From assembly GCA_964514165.1 (NCBI GenBank), contig CAZEPS010000002.1:873-64872 (forward strand): 64,000 nucleotides of DNA, given 5' to 3'. The position numbers were made by a program, and so were the translations under genes. The DNA comes from an uncultured Leptospirales bacterium. Lineage in GTDB: Bacteria; Spirochaetota; UBA4802; UBA5550. The first letter of the stretch is position 1. Each line of letters starts with the position of its first letter. This document shows, one piece after another, positions 15,984 through 47,627 of the stretch. Under the pieces are notes generated by a model, which saw nothing but the letters and a program-made list of their open reading frames with translations, searched no databases and was not told the DNA's origin.

Positions 15984-16027
15984 AATTTTCTCCAGTAGTG
16001 TATTTAAGAGACGCTGTGTCATTTATA

Positions 16028-16160
16028 TAAAAATAAGAGACAGAATGTCTTTTGTCAAGGGGTCAGAGCCTTTTTTTCATAAAATTTGTGTCTTTTTGGG
16101 GAATTCACGTTTTTTTAGCAATATCATGGTTGACAGGTGACACAGTGTCTCTTATTTTTA
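16028..16160. repeat. 133-bp inverted-repeat element (perfect 15-bp TIR TAAAAATAAGAGACA, arms extendable to ~33 bp imperfect) overlapping a promoter
   Basis: TIRs at 16028-16042 and 16146-16160. The internal GGGGTCAGAGCC plus T7 motif (16059-16077) is shared with the MITE at 31426. A TTGACA (16129-16134) - 17 bp - TATTTT promoter overlaps the right arm. Confidence 0.6.
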
Positions 16161-31425: not shown

Positions 31426-31892
31426 CCACAGAGACACTGAGGCACGGAGGTTATAATAACAGATACGGTTAAAAATATAAATAAAAATTTGTCTCATTTC
31501 GGAATGTTGGGAGAAATAAGAGGCTCTGACCCCGTTTTTCCAAAACAACAGGCTCTGACCCCATATTAAAATACACCGGCAGCCGCTTACGATTGGCCTC
31601 TTTATAAAATAAAAAACTTCTCCACGCATTCTTCAAAGGTATTGCCAGGAGCCAGGAAAAAGGAATTGATTTTGATTTTAATCGTAATTGTATGATTTCT
31701 GACCAAATAGCTGTCTATAAAACCGATATTGTTCTTACGGGGGTCCCGGGTCAGAGCTTTTTTTTAGAAAATAGGGGGTCAGAGCCTTTTTTATCTGGCA
31801 AATGCATTTCGACAGAATTTACAGGATAAAGAGGGATCAAGAAAAGAAATATAGAATAACCACCAGACCTCTGTGTCTCTGCGCCTCTGTGG
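31426..31892. mobile_element. MITE-like element (467 bp) with ~25-bp TIRs built from CACAGAG-type heptads, nested internal inverted repeats, flanking TTTTTA direct repeats
   Basis: Left TIR CCACAGAGACACTGAGGCACGGAGG; right end CCTCTGTGTCTCTGCGCCTCTGTGG. Internal GGCTCTGACCCC x2 (31522, 31551) pair with GGGTCAGAGC / GGGGGTCAGAGCC (31747, 31775). TTTTTA sits at 31420-31425 and again at 31893-31898. There is no ORF and the interior is AT-rich. Confidence 0.65.
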
Positions 31893-40180: not shown

Positions 40181-40400
40181 CCACAGAGACGCAGAGGCAC
40201 AGAGATATAAAGAAAAATTTTAAAAAAAACTGTCATCGTGAGGAGTGAAAAGGCGAAGCTATCTCATATAAAAGTAATCGATAATTATCGGTTCTTATGA
40301 AAATCAATGGTTTATGAAACGTTATAGAGAGATTGCTTCGCAAGCTCGCAATGACATAAATAAAACAACAATCATTCTCAGTGTCTCTGTGCCTCCGTGG
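40181..40400. mobile_element. MITE-like element (220 bp), same TIR family as 31426..31892
   Basis: Left TIR CCACAGAGACGCAGAGGCACAGAGA; right end TCTCAGTGTCTCTGTGCCTCCGTGG. The subterminal sequences are related to the larger copy. Internal inverted repeat GCGAAGCTATCTC / GAGAGATTGCTTCGC. No clear TSD. Confidence 0.6.
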
Positions 40401-47554: not shown

Positions 47555-47627
47555 GGTCAGGTAGCTCAGTCGGTAGAGCAGGGGACTGAAAATCCCCGTG
47601 TCGGCGGTTCGATTCCGTCCCTGACCA
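47555..47627 (+). tRNA. tRNA-Phe (anticodon GAA)
   Basis: Cloverleaf read directly: acceptor GGTCAGG/CCTGACC, D-arm GCTC-AGTCGGTA-GAGC, anticodon stem GGGGA/TCCCC with loop CTGAAAA (anticodon GAA), T-arm GGCGG-TTCGATT-CCGTC. It is near-identical to E. coli tRNA-Phe. CC is encoded after the discriminator A. Confidence 0.95.

Follow-up and report, generated by a model that had tools for sequence, protein, structure and literature searches.

Two intergenic loci of a Leptospirales bacterium are probably old, gene-less copies of a heptad-armed hairpin element spread across many phyla and phage contigs

The REPIN–RAYT system consists of REP doublets that form hairpins and of a REP-associated Y1 tyrosine transposase. 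Each REP unit is an imperfect palindrome of 20–40 bp characterized by a GTAG or CGTC tag, and the system is reportedly the subject of work by Nunvar in 2010, Bertels and Rainey in 2011 and Ton-Hoang in 2012. The ERIC or IRU elements of enterobacteria, said to have been treated by Wilson and Sharp in 2006, have to our knowledge no transposase, and we know of no nuclease partner for the palindromic elements of Rickettsia. The latter (RPEs; Ogata 2000, summarised in PMC10969869) and the prokaryotic MITEs, which include Correia/NEMIS, Nezha, Chunjie and others (PMC10969869), are the further described repeats with which the present loci are compared.

The window, that is the whole 64-kb stretch of DNA analysed here, contains two such loci, designated copy A and copy B (Table 1). 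Both probably derive from a widespread hairpin element and lack its gene; the complete unit would be a GxxExxY gene lying between inverted heptad arms: ∼420–460 bp in all, with a small gene of the PD-(D/E)XK fold and two arms of three CAC[A/G]GAG heptads each. The two loci are thus read as old copies of a hairpin repeat that spans many phyla and phage contigs, and not as a classical MITE with a target-site duplication (TSD).

A scan of the window with the arm motif CCACNGAGNCNCNGAGNCACNGAG, in which 100 shuffles served as control, returned four matches against none expected. The stricter pattern of the initial annotation, CCACAGAGACNCNGAGGCACNGAG, searched with up to three mismatches allowed, has its sole matches in the window at the four arms of Table 1 and none in 100 shuffles. 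The arms show no mismatch at the 18 fixed positions in the N-tolerant scan and between 0 and 3 under the stricter pattern; they are drifting at the variable positions. Inverted-repeat alignment gives arms of 27 nt that are 81% complementary at each locus, so that the inverted ends described earlier are borne out at both. The arm proper is 24 nt long and comprises three CAC[A/G]GAG heptads with a 1-nt purine spacer between them. The heptads of the initial annotation are real, and it is their period that has to be amended, from 7 to 8, because each heptad carries the extra spacer base. In the left arm of copy A every CACNGAG heptad is preceded by one base, a C for the first and a purine spacer for the other two. 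Pairing at the outermost flank is limited to A…T in copy A and extends to AA…TT in copy B.

The likeness between the two copies found in the 64 kb is restricted to these arms. The related AT-rich subterminal sequence formerly attributed to both proved to be without homology, as the arms alone align. No convincing ORF is present within either copy, and the gene context is as first described: genes for a 7TM-AraC regulator and an MBL protein diverge around copy A, and copy B lies between genes for an S26 peptidase and an epimerase. Both copies are intergenic, unlike the members of the family that lie in frame within genes.

Table 1. Features of copies A and B and their positions in the window
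Feature	Positions	Strand	Sequence or remark
Copy A left arm	31426..31449	+	CCACAGAG / ACACTGAG / GCACGGAG
Copy A right arm	31869..31892	-	minus-strand reading CCACAGAG / GCGCAGAG / ACACAGAG
Copy A interior	31450..31868		AT-rich, non-coding
Sigma-70-like promoter match	31453..31481	-	TTTATA, 17 nt, TATTAT, with TG; consensus match only
Left halves of nested inner inverted repeats, copy A	31507..31567	+	two GGCTCTGACCCC boxes at 31522-31533 and 31551-31562
Right halves of nested inner inverted repeats, copy A	31748..31801	-	GGGTCAGAGC then T8 (31748-31765); GGGGGTCAGAGCC then T6 (31774-31792)
Copy B left arm	40181..40204	+	CCACAGAG / ACGCAGAG / GCACAGAG
Copy B right arm	40377..40400	-	minus-strand reading CCACGGAG / GCACAGAG / ACACTGAG
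Second palindromic element nested in copy B	40231..40356		arms TGTCATCGTGAG…GCGAAGCTATCTC and GAGATTGCTTCGC…CTCGCAATGACA

The motif of the arms is far from confined to the window. A scan with CCACNGAGNCNCNGAGNCACNGAG over genome_contigs, a collection with one genome per species, and over viral_contigs places arms in at least 120 stretches of each. The matches listed come from Acidobacteriota, Planctomycetota, Chloroflexota, Nitrospirota, Nitrospinota, Bacteroidota, Verrucomicrobiota, Spirochaetota, Gemmatimonadota, Sumerlaeota and Lentisphaerota, from Alpha-, Beta- and Zetaproteobacteria, from Desulfuromonadaceae and Myxococcales MAGs, from a Heliobacteriaceae MAG and from one archaeal MAG (Methanotrichaceae); the cultured isolates among them belong to Undibacterium, Pelomonas, Magnetospirillum and Lewinella. 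Arms are mostly arranged as plus then minus, with 165 such pairs in 240 arm-selected loci, for the most part 54–300 bp in size. Loops between paired arms go down to 6 nt, interiors are unrelated between copies, and some arms are solitary or stand opposite a partner of just one or two heptads. Six positions are near-invariant in every heptad (C.C.GAG). The middle base, A or G, tends to agree across the three heptads of an arm (AAA 111, GGG 24) and is partly matched between the two arms of a pair, at 0.74–0.85 versus 0.52–0.60 for shuffled partners.

Where an ORF is called on either side of an arm pair (46 pairs), the genes are in tandem in 30 cases, divergent in 11 and convergent in five; these contexts are not terminator-like, and a terminator role was rejected.

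A number of loci depart from the simple pair. At the start of one viral contig (L137, positions 1-104 of IMGVR_UViG_3300030329_004017, at the contig end) four pattern matches share the same orientation and do not form an inverted pair; the single nine-octamer array of the census is probably the one here, and an assembly edge effect and a real tandem expansion are both conceivable. On a Mariprofundaceae MAG contig (L069 4421-4776) several heptad-arm elements with closely similar interiors follow one another head-to-tail in a span of 360 bp, an arrangement suggesting that entire elements were duplicated locally in tandem. Two further loci (L055 2024-2586 and L219 4921-5368) have arms that enclose other ORFs, one lipoprotein-like of 157 aa and one of 139 aa, neither of which matches a Pfam family.

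The initial annotation had regarded the two loci as part of a non-autonomous transposable element family, MITE-like and flanked by a TTTTTA duplication. In its classical form this reading describes an element that arose by deletion from an IS, whose terminal inverted repeats it shares, and that is moved in trans by the cut-and-paste activity of a DDE transposase, leaving a 6-bp TSD. It agrees with the terminal inverted repeats, the small size, the lack of an ORF and the promoter-proximal sites, and TTTTTA does stand on either side of copy A. Family-wide, the flanks speak against it. When 72 members were inspected for direct repeats of 2–9 bp beside the arms, with the element end shifted by 0–5 nt, such repeats were at or near chance level, and a 6-bp duplication was seen in one of the 72, namely copy A of the window itself. 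Copy B has no duplication, its flanks being GATGAA and TTATCC. At the orthologous copy A of the relative introduced below, the outer flanks have diverged to TAGTTAG and CTTTTTT and TTTTTA is absent. The TTTTTA flanks are for these three reasons best read as a chance match in AT-rich DNA. Neither an IS nor a DDE transposase was found between the arms in the 240 arm-selected loci, and the search for an autonomous IS with matching ends gave instead, as the sole recurrent enclosed gene, one for a 125-aa PD-(D/E)XK protein (GxxExxY/PDDEXK_3); in the few cases where paired arms are separated by more than 1.3 kb, they enclose ordinary or phage genes, for example a terminase. What stands of the original proposal is a large family of short, non-coding elements bounded by inverted repeats; the TSD and the IS partner do not, and a classical MITE is judged highly improbable.

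In place of a duplication, the inverted repeat itself reaches outward ∼4–6 nt past the arms (TTCA…TGAA). The usual outward forms are TTCA…TGAA, TGAA…TTCA, TTAA…TTAA and CTAA…TTAG. Outward complementarity at positions -1 to -4 is 0.90, 0.52, 0.58 and 0.55 (72 pairs), and a second measurement with shuffled-partner controls extends it to about -6.

Copies that lie in frame within genes bear on the same question. Two are found in a gene for an Lhr-type helicase (L037), one in a dnaE2 gene (L105) and one in the DnaE2 homologue P0111; those of L037 and L105 are translated as P(Q/R)RH…(C/R)G between S and E. DnaE2 homologues of 66–88% identity carry differing translated repeat families in the same two loops, and in P0111 the heptad-arm element occupies the other loop. 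A clean empty allele for the in-frame DnaE2 insertion was not found, as every homologue has another repeat in the same loop. It follows from the three in-frame cases that the added length beyond CCAC…GTGG is 1 mod 3, which fits a symmetric extension of 2, 5 or 8 nt and no duplication. That the family acts as inserted DNA elsewhere is supported by the differing interiors and by the in-frame copies in Lhr and DnaE2 genes. No empty site was recovered among the loci compared.

The acidobacterial error-prone polymerase DnaE2 (L105 3990-7523; P0079-P0198) possesses two hypervariable loops. Different relatives fill these with translated repeats belonging to several families, such as GQWPVASK, FVIPTPERKRGAEESR, AAKRRQNAAHGASRG…APEGRK or IANCQLP…. 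Many DnaE2 gene calls are shorter than the ∼1,130-aa protein.

The age of the window copies was assessed against a single genome, GCA_054919795.1, which shares ∼81% nucleotide identity with the window over 13 kb. The comparison of filled and empty sites, which the initial annotation had recommended, gave filled ones here: the sites of copies A and B are both occupied at the orthologous position. Because they are occupied in so distant a relative, neither copy is, on sequence comparison, a recent insertion and both are old; both are probably immobile now. More distant relatives of the MBL gene have lost synteny and provided no further orthologous sites. A GxxExxY gene was sought by tblastn in the 64-kb window (best E 0.1) and in the fetched parts of the relative, and none was found.

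The nested palindrome of copy B is absent at the orthologous site of the relative, where a mini-hairpin of 39 bp, CCACGGAGGCACAGGGGCAGAG-AATATATGA-CTCCGTGG, stands alone between conserved flanks. Copy B is a hairpin that later gained a second palindrome, and its interior is a nested second palindrome family, the motif of which, GTCATTGCGAG…GCGAAGCAATC, occurs in at least 120 viral stretches. Among viral loci L339-L418 this palindrome is present as four tandem copies with a 33-nt spacing in L371 (2695-2818).

In copy A the nested inner pairs noticed in the initial annotation are present, two GGCTCTGACCCC boxes lying opposite GGGTCAGAGC and GGGGGTCAGAGCC within inner arms of 45 nt (31507-31551 and 31757-31801) that are 76% complementary, and all four boxes are unchanged in the relative though neighbouring bases differ. 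Segments of 200 nt starting at 31432-31532 (span 31432-31731) are 93–95.5% identical to this one relative, versus 81% for the whole 13-kb block, of which the segments starting at 31432 and 31482 are the two best; in the two adjoining genes the identity is 77% (AraC family) and 74% (MBL). Copy A is thus an example of a hairpin interior that is better conserved than the neighbouring genes, unlike a decaying MITE. The outer parts have fared less well: the left arm differs at five of 24 positions and the right arm of the relative is degraded. The sigma-70-like match is situated just within the left arm, is aimed at the AraC-family gene and shows one change in the relative.

That the interior is the best-conserved part of the synteny block suggests co-option, and it has probably been recruited to serve the divergent AraC-family and MBL genes, either in transcribed form or as regulatory DNA. 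The four conserved boxes and the promoter-like match toward the AraC-family gene are the pointers to such a role, which may be proposed from the sequence. A stronger version would regard copy A as mainly a host regulatory region with the outer arms as incidental relics; the four GGCTCTGACCCC boxes, of which two are direct and two lie inverted ∼225 bp away, would be bound as operators by the adjacent 7TM-AraC regulator, with looping made possible between them. The conservation of the interior and of the boxes, the divergent promoter site beside a transcription-factor gene and the promoter-like match would all suit this version. The comparison involves one relative only and so yields no statistical footprint, however, and the same 12-mer with its T-run is also present in an unrelated intergenic element (16059) and within a coding sequence (50889). 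Copy B and the family at large would moreover be left unexplained. This version is considered quite unlikely as a full account, and its content is compatible with the best explanation, that of a gene-less hairpin, as a later co-option.

Several other observations concern copy A and its surroundings. The copy in the relative contains, just inside the right arm, an additional 111-bp block without counterpart in the window (L122 9737-9847); this block holds a hairpin of its own, GGGAACCTCT…AGAGGTTCCC, and the indels in the region are themselves hairpin modules. A decayed GxxExxY gene sought in the interior by tblastn gave no similarity, and the interior as a mobile cassette was rejected, no copy being present in viral_contigs. 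The contig of an independent short-read assembly of the same sequence (Logan SRR7048221, L001) ends 20 nt outside the right arm (31912), as expected if a repeat or hairpin interrupts assembly. Elsewhere in the window, an AT-rich element bounded by inverted repeats (16005-16160) lies in an apparently divergent intergenic region. Its 31-nt arms, at 16028-16058 and 16130-16160, bear mirror-image TTGACA-17 nt-TATTTT promoter-like boxes that face outward, and it shares with copy A the box GGGGTCAGAGCC, present here once and with T7 after it.

A further possibility is that the arms are kept for the sake of RNA, pairing in the transcript as a stem of 24–28 bp that would act as an RNase III processing site, as an mRNA stabiliser or insulator, or as a bridge from stop to start codon, the sequence being maintained for that role. 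The 23S rRNA intervening sequences offer a parallel. The stem length suits RNase III, at one operon-like site the units fill precisely the gap from a stop codon to the ATG that follows, the arms are kept over long divergence, and both strands of copy A fold far more stably than shuffles (z -5.6 and -6.0). The detail of the arms tells against it. At spacer positions 9 and 17 the complementarity (0.50 and 0.51) is not raised above that of shuffled partners (0.43 and 0.44), A:C mismatches are as numerous as G:U ones when all pairs are taken together (81 versus 80), and on the gene sense strand of gene-carrying units A:C exceeds G:U (23 versus 11). Unmatched spacers and the lack of a G:U excess over A:C therefore argue against a stem preserved as RNA and fit recognition of the heptads in DNA. 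In addition, a stem does not require near-identical sequence across phyla, and copies reside in divergent promoter regions and within ORFs. Rfam 15 gave nothing at copy A or B at gathering scores, chance-level similarity alone for copy A at E<=10, and no match in 12 family loci. The long structured regulatory RNA offered as a fallback in the initial annotation finds no support, on the same two grounds, the Rfam result and the mismatch pattern, and an RNA hairpin is in our estimation unlikely. The sole Rfam match in the window is a tRNA gene at 47555-47627 (RF00005, 71.7 bits).

A candidate partner gene came from the ORFs near the arms. When these were clustered all-against-all, most clusters were drawn only from viral loci. 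A conspicuous one had four members, of which three (L041, L076, L120) are enclosed in long elements belonging to three phyla and the fourth (L118) is located 627 nt from an arm. The three enclosed ORFs encode GxxExxY proteins (TIGR04256, E 1e-36 to 1e-45; Pfam PDDEXK_3, PF13366) of ∼125 aa, which belong to a PD-(D/E)XK fold family and not to the Y1 transposases. The gene is enclosed by three of the 165 arm pairs, and gene-less hairpins outnumber gene-carrying units by ∼50 to 1 (∼98% gene-less) among arm-selected loci. PDDEXK_3 (PF13366/TIGR04256) was listed with 'Unknown' function and multiple transfers in a 2012 survey (PMC3424549). A search by sequence for a relative of solved structure gave no PDB match, and defence and phage libraries returned only faint Cas4 similarity and no PHROG.

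The association was also approached from the gene. Metagenomes were searched with peptide patterns from the protein core, and the best 80 of 575 relatives were taken. In these 80 loci, ranked by tblastn with a query whose N-terminus includes the translated arm and which favours arm-bearing loci, 76 GxxExxY genes have room for an arm on either side; of these, 51 are closely preceded by a plus arm and closely followed by a minus arm, and nine more have one arm; where the arm was unable to aid the protein match, both arms accompany nine of 17 genes. Most of the apparently arm-less genes have variant octamer arms (CAGTGAG, CACAAAG, CGCAAAG), the same on left and right. Gene-carrying units are typically ∼418–460 bp long, and the start codon is often just outside the left arm, with the result that the arm is translated.

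In eleven metagenome contigs the unit occupies a single orthologous site, flanked by the same pair of host genes, with proteins 70–84% and flanks 72–86% identical. Eight of these units were compared and show dN/dS of 0.05–0.11 with saturated synonymous sites. All invariant heptad positions are kept in the remaining arms of the eleven, two of which have only two right-arm heptads. The GxxExxY gene is under purifying selection, and the arms persist along with it. Arms that are intact over saturated synonymous divergence are unlike neutral MITE ends; having been retained for so long, they are functional in place, and the six heptads act together as a set. A unit orthologous to the CAC-type units at the same site (L282, Ga0214473_10421897, arms 510-533 and 971-994) has CGC in place of CAC in all six heptads, its protein being 72% and its flanks 74–78% identical. 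This is a concerted change.

As to how the element moves, we infer that the heptad arrays are read as DNA by the GxxExxY nuclease, which makes its cut at the arrays or close by. Such cutting would enable units and gene-less hairpins alike to spread or to be kept, by analogy with REPINs under RAYT, and would do so without a staggered cut. Interiors would diversify as the gene is deleted and other palindromic modules are inserted in the hairpin centre. The long vertical persistence of gene and arms fits a module useful to the host as well as it does a selfish element.

A broader proposal, which we advance tentatively and hold to be possible but doubtful, is that heptad arms and GxxExxY together form a REPIN–RAYT-type replicator system, not described before and driven by a nuclease of the PD-(D/E)XK class. 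This enzyme would recognise CAC[A/G]GAG heptad arrays, six per unit, and would mobilise or protect its own cassette along with thousands of gene-less hairpins, no target duplication being made. Transfer between phyla would take place, perhaps by way of phages, and hairpin centres might serve as landing pads for more palindromic modules, giving rise to nested structures such as copies A and B that are then co-opted by the host. The CAC-to-CGC switch in all six heptads of L282 could reflect co-evolution of protein and site. A full-text literature search retrieved no description of the arm or inner-motif sequences, nor of GxxExxY linked to flanking repeats.

Tying GxxExxY to a defined 24-nt DNA site would open a large prokaryotic and viral family to a direct biochemical test. 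It would also account for a 'junk' repeat, very common in soil, sediment and freshwater genomes, that disrupts assemblies and gives spurious ORFs (…HRDTE…, …SVSLCLCG…). For annotation purposes, copies A and B should not be called MITEs with a target-site duplication.

Set against the described systems, the heptad family shares with prokaryotic MITEs the terminal inverted repeats, a size of 50–500 bp and a non-coding, intergenic character, often near promoters (PMC10969869); both may carry promoter-like sequence, and in both gene-less copies far outnumber coding ones. It differs in having neither a TSD nor an IS or DDE partner, in interiors that are unrelated between copies and in arms that stay conserved long after insertion. 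Like RPEs, heptad-family palindromes are tolerated in frame and translated as extra loops, in this case in Lhr and DnaE2; RPEs are confined to Rickettsia and are not known to be related to the family in sequence, and the two window copies, in contrast, are intergenic. ERIC and IRU elements are likewise imperfect palindromes with conserved ends and variable internal insertions, and between orthologous copies the conservation exceeds that of the intergenic DNA around them. However, ERIC is limited to Enterobacteriaceae and Vibrionaceae and is conserved over its whole 127 bp, whereas the heptad family shares arms alone and has a candidate enzyme gene.

The closest known architecture is, by analogy, that of REPIN–RAYT, from which enzyme class, arm design and cross-phylum range all differ. 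Common to both are short, hairpin-forming inverted doublets in many dispersed copies, a small nuclease-type gene that has these repeats, inverted with respect to each other, on its two sides, the absence of a TSD (the 165 plus-then-minus pairs of the heptad family show no duplication) and the vertical persistence of the gene under purifying selection. The enzyme here is of the PD-(D/E)XK class (GxxExxY) and not HUH/Y1. REPs are lineage-specific, whereas heptad arms of nearly the same sequence recur in many phyla and in phage contigs. An arm consists of three heptads in a purine-rich array, is not self-complementary and is devoid of a GTAG or CGTC tag. Heptad copies also occur in frame inside genes, and GxxExxY is present in many copies across metagenomes, not as one per genome. 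The heptad system would thus add a second enzyme class to the REPIN–RAYT style of long-lived intragenomic replicators.
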